This document shows, piece after piece, positions 21,841-50,055 of a stretch of 64,000 bases of DNA. The stretch spans positions 13,817-77,816 of the forward strand of contig CAZFCQ010000006.1 of the NCBI GenBank assembly GCA_964517845.1, in the 5' to 3' direction. Numbering within the stretch: the first letter of the stretch is position 1; each line of letters begins with the position of its first letter. Both the position numbers and the translations under genes were made by a program. The stretch comes from an uncultured Thermoprotei archaeon (lineage in GTDB: Archaea; Thermoproteota; Thermoprotei; QMSL01; B3-G16). Below the pieces are notes generated by a model. That model did not search any database. It saw only the letters and a list, made by a program, of their open reading frames with translations, and was not told where the DNA came from.

Positions 21841-24555
21841 ATGAAATGTAAATTTCACATAATAATCAATATTATTATATTATCCGTTTTAATTACTTCT
21901 CTTGCTATAGGAGAGGGTATAAAAGCCTCTCCTACTCTTAGCTCTCGTAAAGTAATAATCGTGAATCCCTCTCCCTTCAACAAATTAACCTATGCTTATG
22001 TTAACGTTTCCTTTGTGCCAGGAGAAGCTTATAACTCCAGTATTTACGTATATAACTCCTTTGGAGAAGAACTTCCATTTCAAGTAATTAACGCTTGCTT
22101 CTATCCTTCCTCACCTTATTATAAATACTGTATCCTTAAACTACTTCTACCACTTAAAGCATGGTCCCATGAGAACATTACAGTGACTTTTACAAGTGAA
22201 CCTCGCACTCCTACATTTTTTAATACTGATTTAGTAGTGTATACTGACAATGTCACAGGGAATCTCATAGTTAAGAATGACTTCTATAAAGTAGTATTCG
22301 GTAACGTATCATTGCAAGGAGTTCAGGAATTTTTGATAAAGTCTAATAAGGGATACGTAAGCGTACTCATACGTTGGCCTTTCATAGGATTTTCAGTTCT
22401 TTTAAAGAATGGTACTATCATTACTCCACTAAGCTATGCTAATTTGACATATAGGGTTGTAAGGAAAGGCCCTCTAGAGGTTGTTATAAGACTTAATGCA
22501 ACTAGTTATTTCATGAATATAACACAAACTTACACATTCTCTGCATATTCACCGGTCATTTATGTCCATTCTAAATTATTCTTAAGAGACTACTCTGAAG
22601 TCCTAACTGCATACCTACCCGTCTTCCACATACCAACGGGTATTTTCGACATTATATGGACATCTCTTAATACATCTGAAAACCTGGTTAAAGTTAGTAT
22701 GAAAAGCTTTAGGCCCGCTCCAACATGGTTCCTTCTCTTTTCTAGTAAAGGTAATTATGGTATGGCATACTATTATAACCAAACACTTATGAACTTCAAA
22801 AGCGCGCTCGCTAAGATACTTTACAACTTGACATATACGAAAAAACGTTCACTTATATTTGAAATCTATCGTAAACGTTCGCTATCAATATTAGGTAATG
22901 TTAGTTTCTTAATGAATCCCTCATATTACATAGGGAAAGGTATAAAAGAGGTAAAGGATGTTATCTGGTCTCTAGGGTACTTAGCCAATAATACTGAATA
23001 CTATGAGGATATCCTCTTTGCTAATATAACTCAAAAGATGTCCTCTATCTATTCTAATGTCTCAAAGAGGCTCGTCTTCTTTAAGGAAGAGGGTTACCTT
23101 AACTTAGCTTATCAGTTAAATGAAACGCAACTACGTAGTAATGTTATTCAGCTTGATTCCAGCTTAATAGTATATCCGTATCTTAACTTAACAAAGAATT
23201 TCACGAGGAATATATGGAAGGATGTCATTAAGGAGATGATAACTCCAGTAAGTATACTTACTCCCTTAGCTATCTCTATTAATGCTCCTAACCAAGTCTT
23301 TACTGATGAAATCTTTAACGTAACTGCAAGGATAATAGTTTTAGAGGATTTAGCGAAGCTTAATGTAAGCCTTATGCTCCCAAAAGGTGTCAGGATATTT
23401 AGTGATATTAATACATATAACTTCACTAATGTTAGACAGGGTAGCGAGGTAGACGTCTCTTGGAGTTTAGTCCCCTTTTATGAAGGAAATTATACTCTAA
23501 ATCTTCTTGCCTCATCTGAGAGGGGTGACATCGTCATTAGTAAACCAATAAGCATAATATTTTATCCTGTATTCCCTAAGGTCTCTCTTCTTTATAACCT
23601 TACTGTACTTTGCAAGGATCAAGAAGGTAGACCCATCCCACATATAATGGTTAAAGTCTATGACAATAGGACGGGGGCGTTGGTAGGTTATAATGTGACA
23701 GATATAAACGGTACAGCTACCTTTTATAACTTAAAGTTAGGAACATATAAGGTAGTAGCTTCTGACGGAATAATATCTAATAAGACTATAGTCCTTCTTT
23801 ATAGAAATACCGTATCCTTGATAGTACTTGGTAAGGCGTCCTTCGCTTTAAGCGTATTTTCCTCAGGCGGGTACCCAATGGAAGGAGTAGCCGTATACAT
23901 TTATGATGTTAATGGTACGCTAGTATTTATGGGATATACCGATAAGCATGGTTATTTTGAGAAGCGAGGGCTCCCTCTAGGTAATTATACGATATCTCTG
24001 AGATGGTTTGATGTTACTCTCGATTACTTTAGTCTTAATTTAACAAGAGATATCAACATGAGTTTAACACTTCATGTTCATAAGCTAGTAATTAATGTTA
24101 TGCTATCTGATGGACGTGTATTACCTGGAGCTAAAGTGTCTATAAGCCTAGAGATGGAACGTAGAGGTACTCCCAGAGTGATAGCTTATACTGATGAGTA
24201 TGGTAGAGTGACATTACTTTTGCCTCGTTCTCGATATATAATTGAAGTGGAGAAAGGTCAATATAGGGGTAGAGCTTCAGTATTTCTGGATAGAGATACT
24301 GTAATAGATATCGTATGTTCTACGATAAACACTCTCTGGATCCTTGTCGGCTCTGCGGGAGGTCTTTGGGCCTTTACTGCTCTCTACTGGCAACGAGTTA
24401 CTCGTGTAACATATAGGGAAGAAAGAAAATATCAGCAACTACTTAGGCGACTTGAAGAGTTTTATAGAAAAGGTTTGATAGAGGAGAAGTACTATTTAAG
24501 ATTGAAGAGTGAATATGAGGAGAAATTAAAGAAATTAAGAGGTGAAAGATCATGA
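21841..24555 (+). CDS. Large N-glycosylated surface protein with 3x transthyretin-like (CarbopepD_reg-like) repeats, C-terminal TM anchor and cytoplasmic SHOCT-like tail (locus A, gene 2)
   Basis: Signal/TM MKCKFHIIINIIILSVLITSLAIG and more than 30 N-x-S/T sequons. Three ~60-aa beta-sandwich repeats (VKVYDNRTGALVGYNVTDINGTATF...), a C-terminal TM helix, then RKGLIEEKYYLRLKSEYEEKL. ORF track start 21796 overlaps the upstream gene; ATG 21841 preferred. Confidence 0.65.
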   Translation: MKCKFHIIINIIILSVLITSLAIGEGIKASPTLSSRKVIIVNPSPFNKLTYAYVNVSFVPGEAYNSSIYVYNSFGEELPFQVINACFYPSSPYYKYCILKLLLPLKAWSHENITVTFTSEPRTPTFFNTDLVVYTDNVTGNLIVKNDFYKVVFGNVSLQGVQEFLIKSNKGYVSVLIRWPFIGFSVLLKNGTIITPLSYANLTYRVVRKGPLEVVIRLNATSYFMNITQTYTFSAYSPVIYVHSKLFLRDYSEVLTAYLPVFHIPTGIFDIIWTSLNTSENLVKVSMKSFRPAPTWFLLFSSKGNYGMAYYYNQTLMNFKSALAKILYNLTYTKKRSLIFEIYRKRSLSILGNVSFLMNPSYYIGKGIKEVKDVIWSLGYLANNTEYYEDILFANITQKMSSIYSNVSKRLVFFKEEGYLNLAYQLNETQLRSNVIQLDSSLIVYPYLNLTKNFTRNIWKDVIKEMITPVSILTPLAISINAPNQVFTDEIFNVTARIIVLEDLAKLNVSLMLPKGVRIFSDINTYNFTNVRQGSEVDVSWSLVPFYEGNYTLNLLASSERGDIVISKPISIIFYPVFPKVSLLYNLTVLCKDQEGRPIPHIMVKVYDNRTGALVGYNVTDINGTATFYNLKLGTYKVVASDGIISNKTIVLLYRNTVSLIVLGKASFALSVFSSGGYPMEGVAVYIYDVNGTLVFMGYTDKHGYFEKRGLPLGNYTISLRWFDVTLDYFSLNLTRDINMSLTLHVHKLVINVMLSDGRVLPGAKVSISLEMERRGTPRVIAYTDEYGRVTLLLPRSRYIIEVEKGQYRGRASVFLDRDTVIDIVCSTINTLWILVGSAGGLWAFTALYWQRVTRVTYREERKYQQLLRRLEEFYRKGLIEEKYYLRLKSEYEEKLKKLRGERS

Positions 24556-27500
24556 GGAGGCTTTTATATATACTTACCATTTTATATATCATCACGATCA
24601 GTATATCGCTACCTATTATATCATCTTCTAGCTCTTCATCAAGCGCTATTTATATAACTTTTACTCTTCGGGATTACTATACGGATGAACCGCTTTATAA
24701 CGTTACAGCAGAGGTGACGCTTTCTGCTTCTGGATTAGGTACACGTACATTCAAGCTAGCTACGAATATAACAGGTTTAGCTACTGTTGTATGGAAGGGC
24801 GGTTCAATATCTCCTGGTACTATACCCAGGTTAACATCATTAAGGCTTTCCATAGTTAATGTAACTAAAGAGAAAAAGGTCTATCCCTTACTTGTAATGA
24901 AAATCTGTAAGTCCTTACTAGAATTTGAAGAGTATGTAACTGCATACTTTGATACTACTATGAATATGTCAGTATATGAAGATCTAGATATCCCCTTAGA
25001 TATAATGACTGAAGGTAATATGAGTATAATTAGATGTGATGTATGGGTCCTAAGAGGGAAAGTAGTTAATATTTCCGCTTATGATCCTCTAGAAAATGAC
25101 ATCGCTGAACTTTACGTTAAGCCTGGTTTACCTATATCAGGTATTTCTGCTCAAGGATTTGAGATACCTTATGTATTACCGCTTAACTATCCAGTTCTAA
25201 TTAAGAAAAGTAGAAGAGTATCGGAGCTATATCCTGTACTACAAGTCTGGATAACTAATGAGACTGATGTAGTACCTTGGACGTATCATGTTGCTAAGGC
25301 TTTAGTTGAAAGAAAGCTAGGTGATTTGAAAGCCTCTTTACGTTGGTTTATAGCATTAGGCTATCCAATATCTGAAGAAGTAGCTTCATTAGATTTAATA
25401 AATGCCCTTTCAGACCAAGCACTCTTCCTCTTTGAAAAGAGGAATTATACTGCAGCAGTAGGCGTTATGATAAACTTAATAAGAGTTATGAATGAAAGCA
25501 CAGATAGATTAGAGTCCTTTAAGTCGTCAGCATTCCTATCCTCGTTCTTAATGTTTACTTTATTATTTGGTTTCTCAATAGTCATTACAACATTGTTCCT
25601 TCCTACTAGTAAATTTAAGAATATAGTAGGGGTAGCAATCTTCTTAGGCTTCTTAGGCACGCTTATATTATTGCAACCCTCAGCTAGAGTAGCATCTGCT
25701 GTTCTCTTAAGTTCCTTAGGTGTTAGTATAGCTGCTTTTGATTACTTTGTTTTAGCCGCTGCGACTATTGTTTTCGGGAGCATAATATATTGCATCTACC
25801 TACTCTTTGTATTAGTAACACGTCCAGCAAAGAAGCTTACTCTAAGCTTAGCTTTACAATACCTCAGGGCTAGAAAGTGGAGAAGCTTACTTCTAATAAT
25901 TACCCTAGCCCTAGTAATAGCTTCGTCTATTGCGATCATGCGTGTTTCATTAAGTACTATGCTTTATACTAGCGAGTTAAAGAGTGACTTGAATATCTAT
26001 GGGCTTGATATACGTGTTAATACCTTCTTTAAACGCGAAGGATTAACAGAGTACGAACTATATTGGATTAAGGGGCAAGTTAACTATATTGATGAGGGGA
26101 TAATCAGAGCTCCAAGTACCTTAGACTATGCTGGTGTTCTACTCATATTACCTGGTACAAGGGGAGGTGGCATTTTACTACGTGGAGTAGCGTTATCTCC
26201 TTCCTTTATGTCAAAGTATTTCCACTTAAATGTACATGTACCTATAGGACGCCTTCCATTAGACAAAGAATATGGTATTTTACTTCCATCCACGTATTTA
26301 GGAATTTTCAGACTAGGTAGCGAGGTTAAGGTCTATCTAGCTAAAGTAAGCGAGACTACGGGCAATCTTATTCCTGTAAGACCTATTACTCCTAGAACTT
26401 TAAGAGTGGTGGGATTTTTTGATCCTGTAGGATTAAAAAGCGTCAAGGGACCTGATGGAGAACCATTATTTGAGGATCCAGAAACTACGGTTATTATACC
26501 AGTTAATATAGATCTAGATAAAGACCTTGTAATAACTAGAGTATTCCTCTTAACTAATAGTGATATAGGCTTAGATTACTTAGCTTCACAGCTAGTTAAG
26601 ATATTTCCCGCTAGGATAACTGTAATGTCTGGAATAAGCTCAAGGGTCTATGAATATGTACGCATGTTAACTCTACGTGGACTTAACACTACTCTCATAC
26701 TAGTAATCATGGCTTCTCTCTTAATCTCAAGTGTAATGTTCGATACTGTTGAGGAAAGGAAGCGTGATTATTCCACTTTAGCTATATTAGGGGGTAATCC
26801 ATCTGACCTCTTCTCTATAATCTTGGTAGAGACATTGATTGTAGGGTTCATTTCTTCGTTCCTAGGATGGATTCTTGGAGTACCTGTTGCTGTATTATCT
26901 CAATATGGTATAGCCTTTCTTGGAGAGTATGTAGGTGCTTTGAAGAGTGCTACACTACTCCCTATACAGTCTGCCTTAGTCGCTCTCTTCTTAGGAGTCG
27001 TTGTGACATTCTTCTCGGGAGTTATTCCTGCTGCTAAGGCGCAAAGATTCTCCTTAATGGGACGTAAGAAGCGAAAAATAATAACGTCTGCTGACTTAAG
27101 AATAGAAGGTGATATTGCTAAGTATACCTTGCCACTTCGTGTTTCAATCTTCGAGACAAACTTACTTTACAGGTTCCTTAAGATGGAGATAGTCCCAAAG
27201 AAAGATTTCTTAGGAGAAGAAGTCTATTTAGATGGTACCTTCTCGATATCATTTGCTATGTCAGTAAAATACAAAGGTACATCAGTATCTTGTAGACTTA
27301 AGACAATCCGCAGAGGAGATATTCTACTTCTTGAACTACAGGTGCCTAAGGAGTATAAAGACTACATATACTTTAGTGATGTAGTCTATAATATTGAAAC
27401 TAAGATACTACACTATCCTGAATGGAAGTCTCAACAATTACGTTATCTCATTTTAAGGAAAGCACCATCAGAGGAGGTTATAACATTAGACAGTCTCTTA

Positions 27501-27884
27501 GAAAGGGCATTAAAGCTACTTCAGGATATAGAGGATATGAGAAATAAGTTAGACAAATTGGAAAGCATGAAACATAAGATATCCTCACAGCTCTACATGG
27601 AATATCAGGAGAGATATAAGAGAAACCTTAATAGCCTTTACCGTTCCTTAAGAGCTATTGGCATGAGGCTTGAACCCTTCTATAAGCAGTTAAGAGATGA
27701 GATTTCTAAGCTAAACTCAGAATTAGAACGTATAAATGTTGCTTATGAACTAGGTGAACTCAAACAAGAAGAGTATGAGAAGAAGGCTAATCCATTGAAA
27801 GAAGCTCTTCAGTCTTACATGGAGAAAGCAAACCAGGTAGAACGAGTATTTAGAGCATTAAAGACTCCACTTAGAACTTCTTGA
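24552..27884 (+). CDS. FtsX/MacB-like ABC-permease-domain fusion protein with extra N-terminal exodomain, 4-TM block, cytoplasmic domain and SHOCT-like coiled-coil tail (locus A, gene 3)
   Basis: 1110 aa; ATGA overlap with the upstream stop. Signal peptide and Ser8 run; MacB-type TM1 LSLALQYLRARKWRSLLLIITLALVIASSIAIM; ~230-aa periplasmic-type loop; FtsX TM2-4 (LILVIMASLLISSVMFD...); C-terminal ELGELKQEEYEKKANPLKEAL. Confidence 0.7.
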   Translation: MRRLLYILTILYIITISISLPIISSSSSSSSAIYITFTLRDYYTDEPLYNVTAEVTLSASGLGTRTFKLATNITGLATVVWKGGSISPGTIPRLTSLRLSIVNVTKEKKVYPLLVMKICKSLLEFEEYVTAYFDTTMNMSVYEDLDIPLDIMTEGNMSIIRCDVWVLRGKVVNISAYDPLENDIAELYVKPGLPISGISAQGFEIPYVLPLNYPVLIKKSRRVSELYPVLQVWITNETDVVPWTYHVAKALVERKLGDLKASLRWFIALGYPISEEVASLDLINALSDQALFLFEKRNYTAAVGVMINLIRVMNESTDRLESFKSSAFLSSFLMFTLLFGFSIVITTLFLPTSKFKNIVGVAIFLGFLGTLILLQPSARVASAVLLSSLGVSIAAFDYFVLAAATIVFGSIIYCIYLLFVLVTRPAKKLTLSLALQYLRARKWRSLLLIITLALVIASSIAIMRVSLSTMLYTSELKSDLNIYGLDIRVNTFFKREGLTEYELYWIKGQVNYIDEGIIRAPSTLDYAGVLLILPGTRGGGILLRGVALSPSFMSKYFHLNVHVPIGRLPLDKEYGILLPSTYLGIFRLGSEVKVYLAKVSETTGNLIPVRPITPRTLRVVGFFDPVGLKSVKGPDGEPLFEDPETTVIIPVNIDLDKDLVITRVFLLTNSDIGLDYLASQLVKIFPARITVMSGISSRVYEYVRMLTLRGLNTTLILVIMASLLISSVMFDTVEERKRDYSTLAILGGNPSDLFSIILVETLIVGFISSFLGWILGVPVAVLSQYGIAFLGEYVGALKSATLLPIQSALVALFLGVVVTFFSGVIPAAKAQRFSLMGRKKRKIITSADLRIEGDIAKYTLPLRVSIFETNLLYRFLKMEIVPKKDFLGEEVYLDGTFSISFAMSVKYKGTSVSCRLKTIRRGDILLLELQVPKEYKDYIYFSDVVYNIETKILHYPEWKSQQLRYLILRKAPSEEVITLDSLLERALKLLQDIEDMRNKLDKLESMKHKISSQLYMEYQERYKRNLNSLYRSLRAIGMRLEPFYKQLRDEISKLNSELERINVAYELGELKQEEYEKKANPLKEALQSYMEKANQVERVFRALKTPLRTS

Positions 27885-27919
27885 AACTATGTAAATTATT
27901 TACCTTTTCTTAAGAAATT

Positions 27920-28576
27920 CTAAATTCTGCGTATAGCTATTGCTTGTACTAAATCTGCTGTATCTTCTGCACGGTCTGCTATATTCTCTAATGCATGAAG
28001 AAGATCATCTAACAAAGTTAAGTACCCTAAAGGTATTCTGTAAGCATTCTTTACCATAAGCGATCTACATTTTAAATCAATTCTATCAACTTCCTCTTCT
28101 ATTTCTTCAACTTTACGTGTTTTCTCTAATGCTTCACGTGGATTGTATAGAAGTGCCTTTATACATTCTGAAAGTGCTTTTACGCATTCGTAGTCTTTTT
28201 GTAATATCTCATTTATGCCTTCTCTAAGCTCTTCAGGTAATATGACATAAGGAATTATTTCTAGTATACGTACTGCCTCTTTTCCCCAATCGGCTACAAG
28301 GTCGAGTTTAGATAGTAGCATCATTAAGTCTCCTCTATCGTCAGAAGGCATTTCTCCTTTCTCAAGTTCCGCTACTATCCGTCTTCTGATATAATCTGCT
28401 TCTTCCTCTTTCTTAATACATATTTCGAGCATCTTTTCTCCTTTTTCAAATTGTTTCTTATTCAAAAGGTCTATACCCTTCATTAATTTTTCTATAACAT
28501 CTTGGACTATTAGCATATGATGCATTAGCATTTCAATGATTTTCTTATTTCTACGTTCACGTAACCAGTTAAGCAC
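27920..28576 (-). CDS. DUF47/PhoU-like (putative phosphate transport regulator-related) protein
   Basis: 218-aa all-helical protein with the DUF47 (TIGR00153-like) pattern; no adjacent Pit permease. Confidence 0.55.
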   Translation of the reverse strand: MLNWLRERRNKKIIEMLMHHMLIVQDVIEKLMKGIDLLNKKQFEKGEKMLEICIKKEEEADYIRRRIVAELEKGEMPSDDRGDLMMLLSKLDLVADWGKEAVRILEIIPYVILPEELREGINEILQKDYECVKALSECIKALLYNPREALEKTRKVEEIEEEVDRIDLKCRSLMVKNAYRIPLGYLTLLDDLLHALENIADRAEDTADLVQAIAIRRI

Positions 28577-28702
28577 ACTATCAGCCTATATTATTCTTTT
28601 TATAATGTCTGTTAAACATTTCTAAATCTCCTTGGGGTTCAAATACCTTTAAGTATTCCTCTTGCTATAGTGATTCTATCTGAACAAAGGTGTTATTAAA
28701 CT

Positions 28703-33000: not shown

Positions 33001-36000
33001 ATGGTACATGCGATATTCCTCAATGCATGCCCGAATTGCGGGGGCGAGATTACTGATGATAGGCTCCTTCTAGCACTTCCTTGTCATAATTGTCTACCTG
33101 AAGATATAGCACAGAGACTTATTAAAGAATATGCAAGCTCTCCTCCTCTTATTTTTAAATCAAAAATACTTGAAGTACTTAAAGAGCTAAATAACGCTAA
33201 GAATTATGAAGAGGTAATTAAGCTTGATGAAGAGCTTAAAGAATTAGAACAATTGTTTAATAAGATAACAGGTAGCCGTTTATGGAGCGCTCAGAGGACT
33301 TGGGCAAAGAGAGTTCTTAAAGGTAAGAGTTTCGCTATTATAGCTCCTACAGGAGTTGGTAAGACAATGTTCGGCTCGATAATGTCAATATACTTAGCTT
33401 CAAAGAACAAAAAGTGCTATATCCTTTTACCCACTACTGTGCTTGTAAAACAGGTCTTTGAGAGAGTAAAAGAATTCATCAAACGTGCAGAAATTAACAT
33501 AGGAGTATTAGCATATCACCCTAAGATCCTTAGGGAGGAAGGTAAATCTATCTTTTTTGAAAAATTAGAATCTGGTGATTTTGATATATTAATTACTACT
33601 TCTCAATTTTTAGCACGAAATTTTGAACGATTAAAAAATCTACGCTTTGATTTCATATTTGTTGATGATGTTGATGCATTGTTAAAATCCTCAAGAAATA
33701 TTGATAGAGTCCTTATTCTCTTAGGAATACCTGAAAATTTAATAGAGAAAGGGTTAGAATTGATACGTTTGAGAAGAAGGATCCCTATCTTTATAGCATT
33801 AACCAAGCAGAATGAATCGTATAGGGAGCAATTAGATGAAATTGTTAGGAAAGTTAAGGAAATAGGAGAAGAAATCAGACAAAGTATAAGCAGGTATAAA
33901 GTAGGAGTATTAGTGGTTTCTAGTGCTACTGGAAGGGCTAAAGGCCTAAGGGTGCGACTCTTTAGAGAGCTACTAGGTTTTGAAGCAGGTGCACGTTCTG
34001 AGTTTATAAGGAATATACAAGACATATATTATAGTCCTAAAGAGGATCTAATGAATGCTACCCTAAAGATAATAAAGAGATTCGGTACAGGTGGAGTGGT
34101 CTTCATTCCTATTGATAAAGGAAGTGAATATGCAAAGGAATTATGTGAGTTTCTTAAGAAACATGAAATAAATGCAGAAGTACTTCTTGCTAGTAAAAAG
34201 GGAGATCAAATCGAACGCTTTCTTGCAGGTGAATTAGATGTGCTCATAGGCATAGCTACTTACTATGGCCTACTAGTACGAGGACTTGATCTACCTCAAA
34301 GAATTCGTTATGCTGTATTTGTGGGTGTACCTAAGCTCAGATTTAGTTTAGAAACTAAAGAAGCTCATCCATTTAGAATAGCTTCTCTCCTCTTTGACTT
34401 GAGAGAATACTTAGAGGGTAAGGAACGTGAAGATGTCGATAGGCTTTTTGTACGTATGATGCGCTACTTAAGGGAATTATCTCCCTCACGGATAGCTGAG
34501 ATAAGACGAGCTATAGAAGAGGGAAAGAAGCTTGAAGGAACTTTAGGAAAAATACAACAACTATTTGAAGAAGGCTATAAGAAGGTACGAGAATTACTTG
34601 AACGTGAAGACATACGAAGAAAACTAAGTGCAAGTCCATATATATTATTAGAGGAAGTTAATGGTACTTTGAGAGTAATCGTTCCTGACACTATGACTTA
34701 TATTCAAGCTAGTGGACGGACTTCAAGAATGTTTGCTGGTGGCATTTCTAAAGGAGCATCTATTGTAATAATTGATAATGAGAAGGTGTTTGAAGGGTTA
34801 GTCAGAAAAACCCGTTGGTTCATAGAGGACATCTCATGGAGGCCTTTAGAGGAGATTGATATAGACTCTTTAATAAAAGAGATAGATAGAGATAGAGAGA
34901 CTATCAGAAGTCTAATGGAGGGGAAACTTAGAGTTCAATTTAAGGATCCTGTTAAAAGTGCATTACTAATCGTTGAGTCACCTAGCAAAGCCAGAACTAT
35001 AGCTAATTTCTTTGGTAGACCTTCAATAAGAAGAATAGGAAGATATGTAGTCTATGAGACGAGTACTGGCGCTTACATGCTTTCTATAATTGCAAGTGGA
35101 GGCCATATATTCGATCTAGTTCTTACATCTGAAGATTTCTATGGTACTAGAATTATTGAAGACCGTTTCATACCTGTTTATTCAACCATAAGGCGCTGTC
35201 TAAAATGTGGAGAACAATTTGTAGGCCTTGATAAATGCCCCCTGTGTAAATCAGAAGAATTCTATGATAAGGTTGAAGTAGTCGATATACTAAAGGATCT
35301 AGCAAGAGAGGTAGACATAGTTCTTATAGGTACAGATCCCGATACTGAGGGAGAGAAGATCGGCTGGGATATAGCTACTGTAATAAGACCTTATACAAAC
35401 TATATAAAGCGTATAGAGTTTCATGAGATAACTAAGCGAGCAATACTTGAAGCCCTTGAACATCCTAGGGATATAAATGAAAAATTAGTAGAAGCTCAAA
35501 TAGTTAGAAGACTTGAAGATAGATGGATAGGCTTTGCTTTAAGTGAAGAACTATGGGAAGCTTTTGAGAATAGACGTCTTTCAGCAGGAAGAGTTCAAAC
35601 ACCCGTACTTGGGTGGATCATTAAACGTTATGAAGAGCATAAGAAAAGTGTAAAAGATTTCATATATCTAACATTAGAGAATGGTTTAAGATTAGTACTT
35701 GAAAATCCGCCAATAGAGGGTAATGTTAGAGCATTTCTAGATGAGCTAAAAGAAAAAGAATGCACAGTAGTGAATACTGAAACCTATGAAGATAGAATAA
35801 ACCCTCCCCCTCCATTTACGACAGATGCACTACTAAGAGAAGCAAGCTTTAGACTCGGCATTGACGTTATGAAGACAATGAGCATAGCTCAAGATCTGTT
35901 TGAGTTCGGTTTAATAACATATCATAGAACTGATAGTACTCGTGTATCCTCTGTAGGGAAAGCTATAGCAAAAGAATACATAAGCGAAAACATAGCTCCT

Positions 36001-36723
36001 GAATACTATCAAAGTAGAGACTGGGGAGTTGGAGGAGCACATGAGTGTATCAGACCTACCAGACCATTAGATACTGATAAGCTAAGCCAGCTAGTACGTG
36101 ATGGAATAATAAGAACCCCAAGGCCACTTACGTGGCTTCATTATAGAGTTTATGATATGATTTTTAGGCGCTTTCTGGCCAGTCAGATGAAACCAGCAAA
36201 AGTCATTAAACTTAAAGCTATTTTGGATATTGCTGGAATTAGGAAAGAGATCGAAGGTATTGTTGATATAACCTATGACGGATTTACTAAGGTATATCCT
36301 ATAGAAGAAAGTATCTTTATACCTAAGATGAAGACGGGAGATAGTTATCGTATAATTGAAGCCTCACATGCTAAACGACCTAGCATTATACTATTTAGTC
36401 AAGGTGATATAGTACAGCTTATGAAACAAAGAGGTATTGGTAGACCATCTACTTATGCTAAGATTGTACAAACACTACTCGAACGACGATATGTAATCGA
36501 GTCACAGAAAAGACGTAGGCTTATCCCTACGAAGCTTGGAATTCAGGTCTACAAGTACCTTTCAAGTAATTATAAAGATCTAGTTTCTGAGGAGCGTACA
36601 CGCAAATTAGAAAAGCTTATGGACATAGTGGAGTTAGGTAAAGCAGATTATCAGAAAATAATCAAGGAGCTTTACTATGAAGTAAAGACTGCAGTAAAGA
36701 TTCAGAGAAGAAATAATGCTTAA
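33001..36723 (+). CDS. rgy: Reverse gyrase
   Basis: 1240 aa; N-terminal zinc finger CPNCGG...CHNC, SF2 helicase Walker A APTGVGKT and DDVD box, Toprim ESPSKART, topo IA catalytic Tyr region ITYHRTDSTRVS. Confidence 0.95.
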   Translation: MVHAIFLNACPNCGGEITDDRLLLALPCHNCLPEDIAQRLIKEYASSPPLIFKSKILEVLKELNNAKNYEEVIKLDEELKELEQLFNKITGSRLWSAQRTWAKRVLKGKSFAIIAPTGVGKTMFGSIMSIYLASKNKKCYILLPTTVLVKQVFERVKEFIKRAEINIGVLAYHPKILREEGKSIFFEKLESGDFDILITTSQFLARNFERLKNLRFDFIFVDDVDALLKSSRNIDRVLILLGIPENLIEKGLELIRLRRRIPIFIALTKQNESYREQLDEIVRKVKEIGEEIRQSISRYKVGVLVVSSATGRAKGLRVRLFRELLGFEAGARSEFIRNIQDIYYSPKEDLMNATLKIIKRFGTGGVVFIPIDKGSEYAKELCEFLKKHEINAEVLLASKKGDQIERFLAGELDVLIGIATYYGLLVRGLDLPQRIRYAVFVGVPKLRFSLETKEAHPFRIASLLFDLREYLEGKEREDVDRLFVRMMRYLRELSPSRIAEIRRAIEEGKKLEGTLGKIQQLFEEGYKKVRELLEREDIRRKLSASPYILLEEVNGTLRVIVPDTMTYIQASGRTSRMFAGGISKGASIVIIDNEKVFEGLVRKTRWFIEDISWRPLEEIDIDSLIKEIDRDRETIRSLMEGKLRVQFKDPVKSALLIVESPSKARTIANFFGRPSIRRIGRYVVYETSTGAYMLSIIASGGHIFDLVLTSEDFYGTRIIEDRFIPVYSTIRRCLKCGEQFVGLDKCPLCKSEEFYDKVEVVDILKDLAREVDIVLIGTDPDTEGEKIGWDIATVIRPYTNYIKRIEFHEITKRAILEALEHPRDINEKLVEAQIVRRLEDRWIGFALSEELWEAFENRRLSAGRVQTPVLGWIIKRYEEHKKSVKDFIYLTLENGLRLVLENPPIEGNVRAFLDELKEKECTVVNTETYEDRINPPPPFTTDALLREASFRLGIDVMKTMSIAQDLFEFGLITYHRTDSTRVSSVGKAIAKEYISENIAPEYYQSRDWGVGGAHECIRPTRPLDTDKLSQLVRDGIIRTPRPLTWLHYRVYDMIFRRFLASQMKPAKVIKLKAILDIAGIRKEIEGIVDITYDGFTKVYPIEESIFIPKMKTGDSYRIIEASHAKRPSIILFSQGDIVQLMKQRGIGRPSTYAKIVQTLLERRYVIESQKRRRLIPTKLGIQVYKYLSSNYKDLVSEERTRKLEKLMDIVELGKADYQKIIKELYYEVKTAVKIQRRNNA

Positions 36724-37237: not shown

Positions 37238-38080
37238 ATGTTCGTCGCAGTAAGAGATCATCCTATAGTAGTAGCTTATGATGGACTATTAAGAGGTTTA
37301 AAAGATTTAAGCGTAAGTAGCTTTGAGCTCTTCTTAAGTAGAGATCTAAGAACCCTTTTAGGATTTGATCTTTCTTCTGATGACTATATAAAAGAGTTAA
37401 AGAATTTCCTTGAGGATAACAACCTCTCAATTTGTGCTATCTTACTTGAAAATGACTTCTCAAGATTTCCTCTTGCTAAGGAGATAAAATATATTCTCAA
37501 TGCAGCTAAAATAGCTGAAAAGTTGGATGTCCTAGTATTAAGAATAAACCCTCCTATGAGAGAGATTCCTGGCTATACCCTTAGGGACTACATTGAACTC
37601 TCCTCCAAGGGTATACTGGAAGTCCTAAAGGAAAACTCGTATATTCACTTAGCTATTGAAAATCATGGCTTAATAGGTAATAATAAGGAATATGTAAGTA
37701 AATTACTAAGTGAAATCACAGATGAACGCTTCGGGGTAACATTGGATACTGGAAATTACTATTGGTATGGTTATCCTCTAGAGGAGCTTTATAGAATTTA
37801 TGAAATGGTAGCTCCTCGTGTTAAACATACGCACATTAAAGACGCTACTACAGATAAAAAGCATAGCCTACGTAGACCTAGAGAAGTAAGAATGACCCCC
37901 ATAGGTAAGGGTGATATAGATTTTAAACAAGTTCTTAGAATACTATCTAAGGCTGGCTATAAGGGTGATTTAACTTTAGAGGATGAATCTGTAAGTCCTA
38001 GAAAGGAGAAAGAACTTTGTAGAAAATTATTTAAGGAGGATATAGAATTCCTTAAAAGAATCATAAGGGAGCTCAGCTGA
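37238..38080 (+). CDS. Sugar phosphate isomerase/epimerase (xylose isomerase-like TIM barrel)
   Basis: 280 aa; LAIENHG, HTHIKD motifs; third paralog in the window. Confidence 0.65.
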   Translation: MFVAVRDHPIVVAYDGLLRGLKDLSVSSFELFLSRDLRTLLGFDLSSDDYIKELKNFLEDNNLSICAILLENDFSRFPLAKEIKYILNAAKIAEKLDVLVLRINPPMREIPGYTLRDYIELSSKGILEVLKENSYIHLAIENHGLIGNNKEYVSKLLSEITDERFGVTLDTGNYYWYGYPLEELYRIYEMVAPRVKHTHIKDATTDKKHSLRRPREVRMTPIGKGDIDFKQVLRILSKAGYKGDLTLEDESVSPRKEKELCRKLFKEDIEFLKRIIRELS

Positions 38081-40562: not shown

Positions 40563-41540
40563 ATGACGAACTTGCCTTCAATTAAAGAATCCTTAAGGGA
40601 GGTGTGTCTTTGTCTTGAATATAGGAAGTTTGTTAAGCTAGATTGGTACGTCTCTGTATTTGGATTTGGTGCTATGCGATTACCGGTGATTGGAGAAGAC
40701 AGAAGTAAAATCAATGAGCCTGAAGCTATCAGAATGATAAGATTTGCGATAGATCATGGTGTGAACTATATAGATACCGCTTATACGTATCATGGTGGAA
40801 ATAGCGAGATTCTGGTAGGAAAAGCTTTAAAGGATGGTTATCGTGAGAAGGTAAGAATTGCAACTAAGATGCCTGTTGGCTTGGTCAAAACTAAGGAAGA
40901 CCTTGATAGGATCTTCGAGGAGCAGTTAAGAAGATTACAGGTAGATTATATAGATTTCTATCTCATGCATGCTCTTAATAGGGAGAGGTAGCATAAGACT
41001 CTAGATCTAAATATACTTGACTGGGCTGAGAAGCAAGTGGATGAGGGGAGAATAGGATACATCAGTTTCAGCTTTCATGATGAGTTCGAAGTCTTTAAGG
41101 AGGTAATCGATGGCTATAAGGGATGGACCTTCTGTCAGATTCAATATAATTTCATGGATATAGAGAGTAGTAAGAGAACTCCTGGAGTAATGGGGCTTAA
41201 ATACGCAGCATCAAAGGGTCTCGCTATCGTGATCATGGAACCCCTGAAAGGAGGTTTACTCGCCCTTCCGCCTCCACCCAAGGTTAAAGCTATATGGGAA
41301 GAAGCAGAAGTTGAAAGATCGCAAGTAGAATGGGCTTTACTATGGGTTTGGAATCATCCTGAGGTGTCAGTCGCATTAAGTGGCATGAGTACCATGGAAC
41401 AAGTAGTTGAGAACGTAAAGATTGCTGAATATTCGTGTCCTAATATACTTACTGAAGAAGAACTGAAAATACCACAAGGCTTACCGATTCGTACTCTTCT
41501 TGCAAGAGCATCAAATGCCTTTAAGAGATGGGCTACTTAA
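40563..41540 (+). pseudogene. Aldo/keto reductase interrupted by a single in-frame TAG (40989-40991)
   Basis: ORFs 40563..40991 and 41037..41540 are in the same frame. Joined translation ...DFYLMHALNRER*HKTLDLNILDWAEKQVDEGRIGYISFSFHD is a continuous AKR sequence (N-terminal GFGAMRL, DTAYTYHGG; C-terminal IGvSnf-like). Confidence 0.7.
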
Positions 41541-42834: not shown

Positions 42835-43059
42835 GAAAGAACAAGTAAAAAGCAAACCTTTTGCTGATGAAATCATATGCTAATTCCTAGCTTTATGCTT
42901 AATGATACTTTAAAATACACCATGATTCTAGGGCGGAAGAAGGCACCTATGATGTTCATATAAATGGTATTCATAAGGCGCTAAATTTTGGGATCTTTAT
43001 AAAAAGGTTTGCTTACGGATATATGGAGTAACATGGCCTTTCTGGCCTCTCTATCGTGA

Positions 43060-44358: not shown

Positions 44359-44551
44359 GTTTTATCCCGGCACAGAAATTACAATATCACAACGTTAAAA
44401 CCCACTGATGAAGGCATTCATTGAATAAGCATATGGTAGTTAATGCAATATTTGCCTTGATGTTGTAAATACACTCGATTCCAAAATACCTTTATATCTT
44501 AAATATGATAAGCTCTTACAATATTATCTAAGATATAAGTGCAAAGTATAA

Positions 44552-45574
44552 GTGATGATCATGAGAACTCTCATTTATATGAAAGCATCACTAAGGAACA
44601 GAGCGGGCGCAATAATAAAGAAAATCTCTACCTTAGGAATCAGGGTAAAAGTATTATTTCCTGGAAAAATTGATGGGAAGGAAACTTTAAAGGATGATTA
44701 TGATTTATTTTTGATTATAGGTGATGATAAAACAGTTCTAAGAGCATTTCATGAATTATCCCTCTTTGAGGTTCCGTTTTTAGGGATTAACTATACCAAC
44801 AACATAGGGTTCTTAACTGAGATATCCTTTAATGACTTAGATTGGGCAATGGATAGACTATTGTCAGATGACTATACGGTCGAAGAGTGTAACACTCTTA
44901 CAAGCTTAATTGACTATGAAATAGAAGCCTTCGCTATTAACGATATATGCATTTTCCCCTCGAAAAGTGCAACTATAATGAAATACGACTTATGGGTTGA
45001 TGGAGAGTATATTTGGTGTGATATGGCAGATGGTATCATAATTGCTACACCTATAGGATCTACAGCTTACTCTATGTCAGCAGGTGGACCTATGTTGCTT
45101 ACAAAAGTTAGAGCTCTCGTAGTAACTCCAGTTAATTCTATAGATCTAACGAGGAGATCTTTAATAATACCTAGTGAGTCTAAAGTAGAGATAAACGAAT
45201 TAGAGTGCTCTCGAGACATAGAAGCAATTGCTGATGGTATTGAGCGATATAAAGTTAGGGAGACGATTATCCTTAGTGGGAATGGGAGAAAGCTCAAGTT
45301 AATACGTCTGAAAAGAAGTTCTCATGCCTACGATAGACTCTATAAAAAAGTAGAATTAGCCAAAGCATTAATAGAAATGCCACCAAGTGCAAAATTAGTA
45401 CTAAAAGTACTTGAATATGAAGGCCCTATGACACAAAAGGATATAGTTCAAAGAACTCTACTTCCACCACGAACTGTACGTTATGCCCTTTCATTACTTC
45501 TTAGAAAGGGCTTAGTCATGAAGACACCTAATCTTAGAGACGCTAGGCAAAGCATGTACTATGCAAGAATATGA
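44552..45574 (+). CDS. NAD kinase-like protein with C-terminal winged-helix domain
   Basis: 340 aa; NAD-kinase core (NNIGFLTE; DGIIIATPIGSTAYSMSAGGPML) but GGDGT replaced by GDDKT. An extra ~70-aa C-terminal wHTH-like region follows (KLVLKVLEYEGPMTQKDIVQRTLLPPRTVRYALSLL). Confidence 0.65.
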   Translation: MMIMRTLIYMKASLRNRAGAIIKKISTLGIRVKVLFPGKIDGKETLKDDYDLFLIIGDDKTVLRAFHELSLFEVPFLGINYTNNIGFLTEISFNDLDWAMDRLLSDDYTVEECNTLTSLIDYEIEAFAINDICIFPSKSATIMKYDLWVDGEYIWCDMADGIIIATPIGSTAYSMSAGGPMLLTKVRALVVTPVNSIDLTRRSLIIPSESKVEINELECSRDIEAIADGIERYKVRETIILSGNGRKLKLIRLKRSSHAYDRLYKKVELAKALIEMPPSAKLVLKVLEYEGPMTQKDIVQRTLLPPRTVRYALSLLLRKGLVMKTPNLRDARQSMYYARI

Positions 45575-45930
45575 GTTTCTTTACCTACTAGTAACTTGAT
45601 GAGCTCATTCTTATCCTTAATTAAGACCCTAAGGGGTTTTACTAATAATACATCGTCATCGTTACTAATGAATAGCCTCTTTAAGATAAGCCTTGTATGA
45701 TTCCAACCTATTTTCTCTGGTAAATCTTTAATTAGGTACTCAGTGTAGCCCATCTTACTGAAGAACTTTCTGGATACCACGTTTTCCTTTACAGTTGAAG
45801 CTAGTGCAAATTTAGCTTTATTTCTAACAAAGTATTCTTCACTATATGATAGCAATTTCCTTCCTATACCACATCCTCTGACTTTACGATGCACTCCAAT
45901 ATAGTAAACTACTCCACATAAATTACTCAT
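45559..45930 (-). CDS. GNAT family N-acetyltransferase (start codon uncertain; ORF may extend to ~46101)
   Basis: Acetyl-CoA binding motif RKVRGCGIGRKLL. The same frame stays open upstream for 57 more codons (LIRRLNIEDIDKVIKL...) with no ATG/GTG/TTG. Confidence 0.55.
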   Translation of the reverse strand: MSNLCGVVYYIGVHRKVRGCGIGRKLLSYSEEYFVRNKAKFALASTVKENVVSRKFFSKMGYTEYLIKDLPEKIGWNHTRLILKRLFISNDDDVLLVKPLRVLIKDKNELIKLLVGKETHILA

Positions 45931-46201
45931 AATATGGGTTAGATATGTCTCAACGAAGCCTAGTATCTGACCAGAACTTTCTACTACAAAGGTTCTAGTA
46001 AACCATAGTCCCTCTATAGCACATATCTGATTATATGGATCGAAGGTATCTCTAATGAGTTTGATTACTTTGTCTATATCCTCTATGTTTAATCTTCTAA
46101 TTAGTTATCCCGTATAGACTGTCATCCTCCAATCCTCCGCATTATCAATAGAGGATATGAGATAAGGGGTTAATAATGTTATTCCTCATCTTTATGAACG
46201 C

Positions 46202-46939
46202 TTAGATGTAGGTTAACACCTTTACCTTATTGGATAATTCCTCCTCTACATTTTTCATCCATTTCTTACCTACTGCTATCATAATGAAAATACCTACTAT
46301 TTCACTATGACCCTTCCTAGCTAAGTTAATTAGGACTTTTAATGTCCTTCCACTTCTAACTAAATCGTCAACAATGAGTATTCTATCCTCCTTAGTGAGA
46401 GTACGTTTTGGTACATAATATGTTTCTTGAATAGGTGAACTCTCAGGAATGAATGCTTCTTCGAGGAACTCCATAACTCCTACATCTTTTGATCTTTTAG
46501 CTATAACTAAGGGTACTCCAAAGGTGTACGCTACCATGGTGGCTAACGGAATTCCGTTAACGGCTGCTGTTAGAATTCTTGTAACTCCACTATCCTTATA
46601 AGTCATGTAAGCTTCATCAGCAACCATCTTAAGGATATAGGGATCGCATATCAAATCTGTTAAATCAATATATCCTTCTTCATCTACCCTTACCCTACTC
46701 CTTATTAGTAGTCCTATATCCTGAACTTTCTTTATATCCTCAAGTAGCTTCTTTGCTAGCGTATAACTAGGAAGAAGATTTCCTCTTACATATCGACAGA
46801 GGATTGCTTCCGAGATACTAAGTCTTCTAGAAAGCTCTCTATATGAGTACAGCCTCTTCAGAGCTCTTAATCTTTCTATGACCATAAGTTGTGTCTTAAC
46901 TTTTTCTATTCTTAACACCTTTTTCATTCTCTCTGCCAT
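46202..46939 (-). CDS. HTH-fused phosphoribosyltransferase-type transcription regulator (GfcR/PyrE-like PRTase regulator)
   Basis: 245 aa; N-terminal HTH (YSYRELSRRLSISEAILCRYV), C-terminal PRTase PRPP-binding motif ILIVDDLVRSGRT. Confidence 0.6.
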   Translation of the reverse strand: MAERMKKVLRIEKVKTQLMVIERLRALKRLYSYRELSRRLSISEAILCRYVRGNLLPSYTLAKKLLEDIKKVQDIGLLIRSRVRVDEEGYIDLTDLICDPYILKMVADEAYMTYKDSGVTRILTAAVNGIPLATMVAYTFGVPLVIAKRSKDVGVMEFLEEAFIPESSPIQETYYVPKRTLTKEDRILIVDDLVRSGRTLKVLINLARKGHSEIVGIFIMIAVGKKWMKNVEEELSNKVKVLTYI

Positions 46940-47166
46940 TAATTATGCTCTATTTCATTAAGTGAGTATACATACATATTTAAGCGTTAAGTACAGTAAA
47001 GTCTTCATGTTTTTTCTTCAGGGTTTTTAATGAAGAACTTACTTAATTCTATAGTACCTCCAATATTACCTTGATAATACTTAGGTATCATGCATTCTTA
47101 CTGATAGTTTACTTCTTTTAAACCATGTCATAGATTTTGTCATTGAGACTATGGAGGTGGACTCAC

Positions 47167-50055
47167 ATGAAGAATATCTGGAATACAATATTATGCATCA
47201 TGATCATGCTCCTCGCCTTCCTTACACCTCTCTCTTTTAATTTAATTAAAGCTAGTAATGTACATAAAATATACTTACTGTACCTTGCCAATGATGCCGA
47301 TTTTATAGATATAACTCCATCCATTAAAGATATGCTTATTCAAAGATTCGAGAACAATGATCTAGTTACTGTAATAACGGATATGGATTCCTACAGAGAG
47401 GTATTAACGAATGCTTCTCAAGGTGATATTATAGTTAATCTTCATGGTTCTGTAATCCCTCTACCACCTCCATATACAAGCTTAGGTTCATCAGGAGCTT
47501 TTAAGTTCATTAAAGATTTAGCATTAAATATTAGTAGAAGAGGGTTTGCGTTTATTAACATTGCTGGTTTACCTTTTAAGTATGCTTCTAATAAACGTGA
47601 ACATATATTTATAGAACTTAATGAAGAAGGAATAATTCAATTTTTCAAGGTTCTTAATTATACTGTTAAAGTAGATGGCTTTATAAAATCTGCAGGAGGC
47701 TTAGACTATGCTTCCATAACTGTTGATGGTATAAATGCCTCTAAACTTTCAGATATTTCTCTTCCTACAAGAGTTTCAGCAATATATAGCATTTCAACTA
47801 ATCTAGCGCCGCTATTTACACTTTATGCAACAGATGTAGTTGGATACCTAAGACCTTTTGAAACAGTTGCTGCTTATCCCCTTGGAAAAGGATTCTATAT
47901 ACATGTGGGTATGTGGTACGAGTCCGATAATATAAAGATAGATGTGGTCATTGCTTCATTAGTTTACCTTACTAAACTCGCAGAGCTTACTCCTGAAGTA
48001 TACATAATTGCACTTAATGATACTGCATGGTACGGTGTAAATCCATATGTTTCTCTCCAATACCTTAAAGAGAGACTTAATATGCTAAATATAAGCTACT
48101 ATATAGTCGACTCTAACAAAGCTCTATACGAGTTAATAATGTCTGATATGCGGAATGTAGTAGTAATTAACCTTCATGGTTCTGTAATCCCGATTCCAGA
48201 GGAATACCTCACATCTTCAGAGAATACTAAGACCTCTGTTTATGAATACATAGTTGACCTTGCTAGATGTGTAAGAGATAAGGGATGGATATACGTGAAT
48301 GTCGCTGGGTATCCTTTCTCTATAGTAGCGTGTGGAAAATCTCAGTTCTGGTATGTTACTAATACTGCTGGTTTATCGACTTTCTTAGCAGCAGCAAGTA
48401 ACTTCACCGTAGGTGGTTATTGCTGGGATGGTCTCTCTGATAGACCATTAGGTGCTATTTTAACAGATGATGGAATAATGACCGTGAGAGAGCTTAACCT
48501 AAAGCCTTGGGAAGTTTGGGGAGCTATCATAGCACAATATAGCCTCAATACCTCTGCTCCATGCCTCACCTCACTCTACGATACGTTCTTACTAATAAGC
48601 GATAGGAAATATAGAGCAGTAGCTAGCTTAAGATATGGTCAAGGGATCTTTGCTTTCATAGGCTTAGGACAGCAAGTTCCCGATTCTGTAAAAGCATCAC
48701 TAGGCTTTTTACTAATTTCAATAGTTAAGCCTAAGAAATTAACAATTTGCGTATCTGATTCAGAACTAAAGCCTATAGGAACTGTTGAAGTGTCTATTAC
48801 TGTAGGTAATACGGAAATAGAAAAAGGCTATACTAATGAGAGTGGTATCTTTAGTACATTTCTAAGCGGTGGTATCTATACTATTGCCTTATTCCACGAG
48901 GGTTTCTCTCCCCTTACTTTACAATACAGACTACTAACTCTTCCAGGGAATCTTAATGTAACTTTAGAACCCATACAACTCAAGATACGTGCTATAGATA
49001 TACTTACACAAGATCCTGTAGTAAATGCTACCGTAACTATAGTTGATGCCTATGGCAACAATGTATCTTCTATGTTAACGGATTCACAAGGATATGCTAT
49101 TTTCAATTTACCATCAGGTTCTTATTACGTGGTAATACAGGCAACTGGATATACTCAGTATAAGAGCTCGCTCATAGAACTATCTAGCACTACGTACTTA
49201 GAGGTTCCTTTAAGGAGATCTTTCAAAGGCCTTTACATCCGTGTAATAGATGCCAATTCAAGGAGGCCTCTTTCTTCAATGAGCGTAAAAGTATTTGAAG
49301 ATGAGTCACTAATTTATGAAGGTATCACTAATGAGGATGGCCTTATAACGGTCAACTTAGCAAACTCCTCGACTCTACGAGTTGAAGTCTATGATGGTAA
49401 TATGCTAGTTGGAATGAGCGCATTTACAGCTTCTAACCTTATGAGTTCCATGATAGTAGAGATCCCAGTCTTCAAGGACGTTAAGTACAAGAGTCTCTAT
49501 CAAAAGGAAGTCCAGCTTTATAAGAGTTTAAAAAGAGAATACGAATCTCTGCTTTCTAAGTATAACTCTTTACATAAGAAATACAATTCTTTAAGTGATA
49601 AGTATTCGGAACTTAGTAAGAGCTATTCGAAGCTTAAAGAATCATTCCTTGAGCTAGAAGATAGATATTTAGAGATTAACAAAGCATACTTCATTCTAAA
49701 TAGGACCTTTAATGAGCTAATGGTTAATTATACTGAGATGTTAGAAAGCTTCGAGAATTTAAATAATGAATATAAGAGCCTCGAGGTAAACTTTACTAAG
49801 CTTAACGATATGTATATACAATTAGCAAGTAATTATACAGTACTTGAAGATCAATTTAATGAACTAAAGGCTTGGAACGCAACACTAACTACAAAATATA
49901 ATGAACTATTAGAAGTAAAGAATAAGTATGAGAGTTTAAAGAGGACTTGGCCCCTAGTATCCTTGGCAATAGCTATCTTAAGTATGGTAATTGGGACGGC
50001 ATTAGGCTATGCATATGGTAAACGTAGAGGTGAGTACTTAGTTATAAATCCTTAG
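47167..50055 (+). CDS. Large surface protein: signal peptide, internally duplicated N-terminal domains, 3x transthyretin-like repeats, extracellular coiled-coil stalk, C-terminal TM anchor (locus B, gene 1)
   Basis: Signal peptide MKNIWNTILCIMIMLLAFL (ORF opens at 47137); duplicated ~230-aa modules (IVNLHGSVIPLPPPY / VINLHGSVIPIPEEY); three CarbopepD_reg-like repeats; heptad YxSL coiled coil; terminal TM WPLVSLAIAILSMVIGTALGYAY then KRRGE. Confidence 0.65.
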   Translation: MKNIWNTILCIMIMLLAFLTPLSFNLIKASNVHKIYLLYLANDADFIDITPSIKDMLIQRFENNDLVTVITDMDSYREVLTNASQGDIIVNLHGSVIPLPPPYTSLGSSGAFKFIKDLALNISRRGFAFINIAGLPFKYASNKREHIFIELNEEGIIQFFKVLNYTVKVDGFIKSAGGLDYASITVDGINASKLSDISLPTRVSAIYSISTNLAPLFTLYATDVVGYLRPFETVAAYPLGKGFYIHVGMWYESDNIKIDVVIASLVYLTKLAELTPEVYIIALNDTAWYGVNPYVSLQYLKERLNMLNISYYIVDSNKALYELIMSDMRNVVVINLHGSVIPIPEEYLTSSENTKTSVYEYIVDLARCVRDKGWIYVNVAGYPFSIVACGKSQFWYVTNTAGLSTFLAAASNFTVGGYCWDGLSDRPLGAILTDDGIMTVRELNLKPWEVWGAIIAQYSLNTSAPCLTSLYDTFLLISDRKYRAVASLRYGQGIFAFIGLGQQVPDSVKASLGFLLISIVKPKKLTICVSDSELKPIGTVEVSITVGNTEIEKGYTNESGIFSTFLSGGIYTIALFHEGFSPLTLQYRLLTLPGNLNVTLEPIQLKIRAIDILTQDPVVNATVTIVDAYGNNVSSMLTDSQGYAIFNLPSGSYYVVIQATGYTQYKSSLIELSSTTYLEVPLRRSFKGLYIRVIDANSRRPLSSMSVKVFEDESLIYEGITNEDGLITVNLANSSTLRVEVYDGNMLVGMSAFTASNLMSSMIVEIPVFKDVKYKSLYQKEVQLYKSLKREYESLLSKYNSLHKKYNSLSDKYSELSKSYSKLKESFLELEDRYLEINKAYFILNRTFNELMVNYTEMLESFENLNNEYKSLEVNFTKLNDMYIQLASNYTVLEDQFNELKAWNATLTTKYNELLEVKNKYESLKRTWPLVSLAIAILSMVIGTALGYAYGKRRGEYLVINP

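Follow-up and report, generated by a model that had tools for sequence, protein, structure and literature searches.

The window analysed here is a stretch of 64,000 nucleotides from an uncultured Thermoprotei archaeon. It encodes two surface proteins, termed protein A (21841..24555) and protein B (47167..50055) in this report. Both are probably N-glycosylated envelope proteins anchored at the C-terminus, and they appear to share a common chassis as evolutionarily independent members of it. A sequence-only reading of the same DNA had described them as giant paralogs with one domain grammar and opposite stalk topologies. Both open reading frames (ORFs) are present at these positions and the order of their elements was largely recovered. 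Common descent was not, and with 904 and 962 residues the proteins are smaller than "giant" suggests.

A and B both begin with a few basic residues, followed by a hydrophobic segment of ~20 residues, which agrees with the signal peptides claimed earlier. GGTG-like Shine-Dalgarno (SD) motifs are found upstream of both start codons. The three carboxypeptidase-regulatory-like repeats per protein were confirmed: PF13620 (CarboxypepD_reg) scores 61.8 bits in A and 69.3 bits in B, both above the gathering threshold of 32.3 bits, and a hidden Markov model (HMM) of the pooled repeats finds exactly three domains in A, three in B and none in the other ORFs of the window. Each protein has a single C-terminal transmembrane (TM) segment with basic residues behind it, as expected for the anchor that had been proposed. 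The predicted outside part of A contains 32 N-x-S/T sequons (8.5 expected; none of 1,000 shuffled sequences reaches 32), and the head and the immunoglobulin-like (Ig-like) part of B contain 13 (6.3 expected). No enrichment was observed in the predicted cytoplasmic segments or in the cytoplasmic neighbours. Since the sequons are enriched on the outside only and the TM flanks follow the positive-inside pattern, the predicted topology of both proteins is well supported by sequence.

Full-length similarity of A and B was not found. BLASTP of A against B gave a best E-value of 0.04, and the matches are not colinear. Alignment of the two family HMMs with hhalign, the check that had been proposed along with paralogy, yields a single significant block. 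It joins residues 584–810 of A to residues 523–750 of B and covers only the repeat region of either protein (E 1.5e-13, Prob 98, 23% identity); heads, coil and tails do not align. A repeat-by-repeat matrix gives diagonal scores of 44, 54 and 33, and every repeat of A matches the second repeat of B best, so that no R1-R1, R2-R2, R3-R3 pattern is seen. The repeats of B score 50–67 against one another, above any pair of a B and an A repeat. In searches with the B profile, a single A-family member reached 58 bits, and A of the window was not reported. A collagen adhesin of Gram-positive origin (6fwv) scored 48 bits at equal database size. Because the repeats alone align, a diagonal is lacking and the adhesin scores nearly alike, the common part of A and B is, by sequence, a generic and widespread Ig-like domain, and the two proteins are not full-length paralogs. 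Similarity confined to generic Ig-like folds is the result that the sequence-only reading itself had named as speaking against paralogy.

A long coiled coil is present in B. It lies directly before the TM segment, on the predicted outside as had been claimed, and comprises 156 residues in 22 uninterrupted heptads. Tyr or Phe occupies 19 of the 22 'a' positions, and the 'd' positions hold Leu, Ile or Met. This aromatic pattern is kept in all members of the B family, including the distant P0010. In natural coiled coils aromatic residues make up less than 10% of the core positions, and the study concerned (bioRxiv 10.1101/2021.02.01.429152) treated the general ability of Tyr-rich sequences to form coiled coils as an open question. 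Matches of the coil to the C-terminal domain of RNA polymerase II, obtained in a single-sequence PDB search, are spurious and stem from the seven-residue periodicity of Tyr. In A, the segment behind the TM helix has only 54 residues, ~30 of which are heptad-like, and nothing in it compares to the coil of B. Thus, the cytoplasmic coiled coil that had been assigned to A stands as a helical tail but not as a stalk, and the notion of opposite stalk topologies is misleading: a true coil stalk belongs to B, a short SHOCT-like tail to A.

The head of B is composed of two homologous α/β domains of ~245 residues each, which represent a tandem duplication (hhalign E 4.5e-32). Its AlphaFold2 (AF2) model has a mean predicted local distance difference test score (pLDDT) of 91.7 and a predicted template modelling score of 0.91. 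Conserved motifs of the domain are D-[IL]-[LI]-[IV]-N-L-H-G and N-[IV]-A-G-x-P-F. No Pfam model matched when the B head and its ten best homologues were scanned. An exhaustive profile search found the domain in 115 representatives, mostly with an N-terminal hydrophobic segment and often with a C-terminal TM segment. It co-occurs with Laminin_G_3, PA14, GH99 and CarboxypepD_reg domains and once with a Ser/Thr kinase. These sequence features fit an extracellular binding or glycan-related module, and the domain is a candidate for a new extracellular family.

In the model of the A head, only residues 478–583 are confident. This part matches macroglobulin (MG)/CARDB-type sandwiches in Foldseek (rmsd 2.4–4 Å over ~105 columns), in agreement with a weak BatD/DUF11 match in Pfam. 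Foldseek matches to Fusexin and complement proteins derive only from this sandwich and were not interpreted beyond it. Neither thermopsin nor any other significant Pfam match was found in the A head, and a third word-indexed search with it returned no further homologues.

The best-conserved segment of both families is the cytoplasmic tail. Mean pairwise identity is 65% in the A tail and 39–47% over the rest of A; the 12-residue tail of B has 63% identity compared with 36–45% elsewhere. The motif G-[KR]-R-[KR]-G-E-Y-x-V of the B tail, with R-G-E-Y-x-V invariant, is also found in P0010. The A tail has the pattern …LLxRLEExYxxGx[IV]E[ED]x[YF]YxxLKxEYExKL…, and its earlier designation as SHOCT-like appears to hold at the level of the motif only. 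SHOCT (PF09851) gives nothing at E<=10 on the A tail of the window, 16 bits (cut-off 27, E 0.0099) on the tail of an A orthologue and E 3.1 on the tail of an otherwise unrelated protein of the metagenomic contig L028, so that every score is below threshold. The latter protein (337 aa, 753-1766 of L028) consists of a signal peptide, a CarboxypepD_reg domain, a second sandwich and a TM segment. It shares the A-type TM segment and SHOCT-like tail (37% identity over 82 aligned columns, residues 831–901 of A). Because this surface protein ends in the same TM segment and tail, the two together look like a portable anchor module. An HMM of the A tail ranks the 265-aa protein encoded upstream of A second among the ORFs of the window (E 0.006). 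According to published comparative work, SHOCT-like bihelical modules are predicted to reside inside the cell, where complexes would assemble through them at the inner membrane surface. The conservation of both tails and of the neighbouring genes, the resemblance to SHOCT and the shared motifs suggest that both tails dock cytoplasmic partners, for which the products of the operon neighbours are the obvious candidates.

Features of A and B and of their cassettes are listed in Table 1.

Table 1. Proteins A and B with their domains and cassette partners. Nucleotide positions refer to the window, residues to the respective protein.
Feature	Residues	Nucleotides	Strand	Remark
265-aa coiled-coil protein, cytoplasmic, first gene of the A cassette		21032..21829	+	heptad-like over most of its length, no hydrophobic segment
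Protein A, 904 aa		21841..24555	+	ATG at 21841 fits the N-termini of orthologues
A signal-like segment	1-27		+	hydrophobic segment
A head	28-477		+	no fold assigned
A MG/CARDB/BatD-like sandwich	478-583	23272-23589	+	
A three CarboxypepD_reg repeats	584-826	23590-24318	+	
A TM segment	831-850	24331-24390	+	
A conserved SHOCT-like cytoplasmic tail	851-904	24391-24552	+	
FtsX/LolE-like multi-pass membrane protein, 1110 aa		24552..27884	+	PF02687 41.1 bits, cut-off 25.5
Protein B, 962 aa		47167..50055	+	ATG at 47167 fits the N-termini of orthologues
B signal-like segment	1-29		+	
B head, two homologous α/β domains	30-275 and 276-520	47254-48726	+	
B three CarboxypepD_reg repeats	523-766	48733-49464	+	
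B coiled coil, 22 heptads, 156 aa	772-927	49480-49947	+	just before the TM segment
B TM segment	928-950		+	
B conserved 12-aa tail		50017-50052	+	GKRRGEYLVINP
HerA/FtsK-superfamily (DUF87) P-loop ATPase, soluble, 919 aa		50077..52836	+	PF01935 47.2 bits, cut-off 23.2
268-aa cytoplasmic protein, third gene of the B cassette		52909..53715	+	no fold assigned

Two anchors of the surface layer (S-layer) protein SlaA in Sulfolobales offer the closest comparison. SlaB combines three Ig-like domains with an extended coiled coil and a TM segment. In the second anchor, Saci_1846/M164_1049, a signal peptide is followed by a thermopsin-like head, three Ig-like domains and, at the C-terminus, a TM segment. 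Both anchor SlaA at about 37 nm. B has the architecture of SlaB (signal peptide, three Ig-like domains, long coil, single C-terminal TM segment) and adds the 490-aa head. It further differs by Tyr/Phe at the 'a' positions of the coil, which are aliphatic in SlaB, by the conserved RGEYxV tail and by its neighbour, which is a HerA-like ATPase gene instead of a slaA-like gene (only adjacency was tested). The B profile matches SlaB of the S. acidocaldarius S-layer entry 8QOX (8qox_B) at E 2.2e-6; the match runs colinearly over two stretches, one in the Ig region and one across the coil and TM segment. A has the architecture of Saci_1846/M164_1049, i.e. signal peptide, head, three Ig-like domains and C-terminal TM segment without a coiled coil. 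It differs by a head in which no thermopsin-like domain was recognised by Pfam, on which ground membership of A in the thermopsin-like type was rejected, by the 54-aa SHOCT-like tail and by its translational coupling to an FtsX-like protein. Judged by sequence, B thus resembles SlaB with an added head and A resembles the Saci_1846 type with another head and tail, but neither protein passes the sequence membership test for these types. Saci_1846/M164_1049 and the coiled-coil SlaB coexist in one cell, the same pairing of two proteins as A and B. Because of this pair, one coiled-coil protein and one coil-less protein on a common grammar can be regarded as a known crenarchaeal situation.

Tetrabrachion of Staphylothermus marinus and the PySLP-type proteins are likewise membrane-anchored stalks with Ig-rich ectodomains, a C-terminal TM segment and a basic tail, and the material that they carry stands tens of nm away from the membrane. 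Tetrabrachion differs in that its tetrameric stalk is roughly 70 nm long and itself forms the lattice. PySLP proteins are much larger, have Ig stalks and carry Lys at the C-terminus. A and B are too small and end in ...RGERS and ...VINP, respectively; PySLP-like membership was rejected for both.

The gene of the FtsX-like protein follows that of A with an ATGA overlap of stop and start codons, and GGTG-type SD motifs precede the internal genes of the cassette. Thermofilum-like contigs and 15 metagenomic loci were examined. In all loci of sufficient length the order of the three genes is kept, down to an identity of 28–30% in A: the 265-aa protein precedes A and the FtsX-like protein (~37% identity) follows it wherever the locus reaches that far. 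The ATGA overlap is likewise present in loci L001-L003. The 265-aa protein contains two SHOCT-like motifs, G-E-[IYF]-[DE]-x3-Y, which are kept in its orthologues; its match to a CdvA-like coiled coil is weak (E 8.8e-5, below the cut-off). The FtsX-like protein has an N-terminal glycosylated ectodomain (residues 24–331; 9 sequons with 2.2 expected), a second ectodomain (residues 464–714) and a cytoplasmic C-terminal region of 284 residues that ends in a coiled coil. Like the FtsX/MacB/LolCE systems (e.g. FtsEX-EnvC), the A cassette encodes an FtsX-domain protein with large ectodomains together with an extracytoplasmic partner. The differences are the additional N-terminal TM segments and ectodomain of the FtsX-like protein, its cytoplasmic C-terminal domain with the coiled coil, and the ATPase: no ABC ATPase gene is present within the cassette in the window or in L001-L003 (the other A loci were inspected for the three cassette genes only). 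The nearest ABC_tran genes in the window are at 6489-8615 and 18-749.

Additionally, residues 269–871 of the FtsX-like protein match the PADLOC model CARF_LolE_TM (E 3.8e-32), a family of type III CRISPR-associated membrane effectors. No CARF domain was seen in the protein, and the match points to a shared extended LolE-like membrane core.

B lies between a PRTase-family gene and the gene of the HerA-like ATPase, which begins 21 nt 3' of B. The latter is found downstream of B in every locus that is long enough (47–60% identity). The third member of the triad, the 268-aa protein, is the best conserved of the three (54–70% identity) and has no match in Pfam, NCBIfam, PADLOC or the PDB. The triad is kept in all B loci, and the flanking genes vary on both sides. 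On account of the ATGA overlap, the SD-like motifs, a gene order kept down to 28–31% identity and the changing flanks around the B triad, each triad is read as an operon. The adjacency of FtsX-like and HerA-like genes to A and B, as noted in the sequence-only reading, is real, with both Pfam matches above cut-off. The role of these partners as energising or transmission components found no support: the FtsX-like protein comes without an ABC ATPase in its cassette and the HerA-like protein is soluble.

No TM candidate was found in the HerA-like protein. It has a central coiled coil (~residues 590–730) and a C-terminal cluster rich in Cys and His, and it matches PADLOC mad8 (E 1.4e-22) and HerA chains in the PDB (E about 1e-8). 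Searches of plasmids by tblastn gave distant DUF87 matches only. The HerA-NurA helicase system was rejected, as the HerA equivalog models score 23–47 bits with cut-offs of 800 and the 268-aa neighbour has no NurA match. A reading of the PADLOC matches (mad8 and CARF_LolE_TM) as defence systems was rejected as well, since shared ATPase and FtsX cores explain them. The C-terminus of the HerA-like protein (residues ~775–905, 52400-52800 of the window) is dense in repeated C-x2-C ... C-x2-H motifs. It has no Pfam match, and the array probably forms several zinc-binding units.

The chassis of signal peptide, variable head, about three Ig-like sandwiches and C-terminal TM segment recurs among S-layer-associated anchors of Thermoproteota. 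In the proposed arrangement, export brings the N-terminus of B to the outside, the C-terminus stays inside behind the membrane anchor, and the protein would act as a SlaB-type stalk. A parallel, oligomeric coil would measure ~23 nm (156 residues x ~0.15 nm). Coil and Ig-like domains together would hold the double head roughly 35–40 nm above the membrane, a height comparable to crenarchaeal S-layer canopies (roughly 37 nm in Sulfolobus and Pyrobaculum). Because members of its domain family accompany lectin and glycosidase modules in other proteins, glycan or S-layer material is the probable ligand of the B head. A lacks a stalk coil, and its four β-sandwiches and head would sit directly on the membrane. 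It may be co-translated and complexed with the FtsX/LolE-like protein. This complex would be held from the cytoplasmic side by the 265-aa protein, which has two motifs similar to the A tail; both of these and the C-terminal coiled coil of the FtsX-like protein may form a sub-membrane scaffold.

Several observations weigh against this arrangement of A and B as independent anchors. The match of B to SlaB is weak, lies mostly in coil and TM segment and is dominated by coiled-coil composition, and the NCBIfam SlaB model NF040788 gives B 20.5 bits with a cut-off of 700. No slaA-like or PySLP-like lattice gene adjoins B. The AF2 model of the A head is unreliable (pLDDT 44). Foldseek matches of the B head in the PDB are weak and not significant (E >= 1.5e-3), the best being GH42 enzymes and a ThuA-like protein; in the model they hint at a flavodoxin/GATase1-like fold. 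Contact between tails and neighbours is predicted from conservation and synteny, and the relatives are few and come from related lineages, which makes synteny on its own moderate evidence.

Three other explanations were weighed. The two triads, or one of them, could be envelope-spanning machines in which cytoplasmic parts work on the stalk proteins outside by way of the tails, for instance to assemble or remodel the S-layer or pseudo-periplasm or for its signalling. The strict conservation of the triads with their short or overlapping gene junctions would fit this, as would tails that are the best-conserved parts (invariant in R-G-E-Y-x-V in B) and SHOCT-like motifs common to the A tail and the 265-aa protein. 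Such machines are nevertheless unlikely, given a HerA-like protein without a TM segment or known membrane-binding element, an A cassette without an ABC ATPase in the window and in L001-L003 and, in B, a tail of 12 residues that offers a small interface. Furthermore, the HerA-like ATPase matches defence-type HerA/mad8 and might do DNA work unrelated to B. Active coupling of cytoplasm and surface in general would be similarly unlikely. A specific version of it is unlikely as well: the B triad would be an unrecognised apparatus in which the HerA-like ATPase docks on the invariant RGEYxV tail of an aromatic-zipper SlaB-like stalk and ATP hydrolysis is thereby coupled to the way the S-layer or pseudo-periplasm is assembled, inserted or remodelled, with the A triad as an analogous, ATPase-less device on a sub-membrane scaffold.

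Descent of A and B from one ancestral surface device, with the coiled coil moved across the membrane, is very improbable. It would account for the same order of element types, for the colinear blocks of three repeats, for two genes in one 64-kb window and for the conserved tails and partner genes of both. The alignments given above stand against it, as BLASTP finds no colinear match, nothing aligns outside the repeats, the repeats of A and B do not correspond in position, and the B profile misses A of the window and scores a bacterial adhesin close to an A-family member. In addition, the A tail is a SHOCT-like motif of 54 residues and not a displaced stalk, and the A cassette occurs in Thermofilum metagenome-assembled genomes (MAGs) in which a relative of B was not found. 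The idea of two variants of one surface theme keeps some support as convergence with conserved partners, not as common descent. Even less probable is that B is the S-layer protein of this lineage itself, tetrabrachion-like with lattice head and stalk in one chain, or an orthologous SlaB anchor, with its neighbours incidental. Its architecture, the weak SlaB match and a stalk length near known canopy heights would agree with this. Scores far below the SlaB family cut-off and the lack of an adjoining lattice gene argue against it, as do the PySLP-like S-layers predicted for Thermofilales and a conserved tail motif and triad that a passive anchor would not need. Most likely, A and B are independent anchors on a chassis whose shared grammar is ordinary for the phylum.

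To our knowledge, the envelopes of hyperthermophilic Thermoproteota beyond Sulfolobales and Pyrobaculum are almost unknown. A and B each represent a so far uncharacterised family of stalked surface proteins, the anatomy of which is clear and testable. The B type is SlaB-like, with a candidate new head domain family and an unusual Tyr/Phe core in its coil; the A type is locked to an FtsX-like protein without a cassette ATPase. From the conserved tails and the conserved cytoplasmic neighbours, some communication across the membrane may be suspected which, if true, would bear on the assembly of archaeal S-layers or on their coupling to the cytoplasm.

The window (~36% GC) is chromosomal DNA of a hyperthermophilic crenarchaeon and contains housekeeping genes such as those of reverse gyrase (33001-36723), CDC48, aldehyde:ferredoxin oxidoreductase and others. 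The nearest relatives of A and B are encoded in MAGs of Thermofilum sp. and in those of uncultured 'Thermoprotei archaeon' entries, which stem from hydrothermal sediments at Pescadero and Guaymas.

Four further loci of the window were noted. On the minus strand, 56455-58239 encodes a multi-pass membrane protein of 594 aa without a Pfam match. The gene lies ~2.4 kb upstream of that of a GT2 glycosyltransferase (60615-61616), and its product may be an enzyme of envelope glycosylation, either of the GT-C type or of another. One in-frame stop codon (40989-40991) splits the aldo/keto reductase gene at 40563-41540, and its halves match positions 3–112 and 129–275 of the 291 positions of the Pfam model; either the gene is a pseudogene or the assembly is wrong here. 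The gene at 44552-45574 encodes an NAD kinase with a MarR-type winged-helix domain fused to its C-terminus, and the same fusion is present in the related contig L006. Finally, three paralogous genes of xylose-isomerase-like TIM barrels (AP_endonuc_2) are located in the window at 2022-2870, 10529-11392 and 37238-38080.

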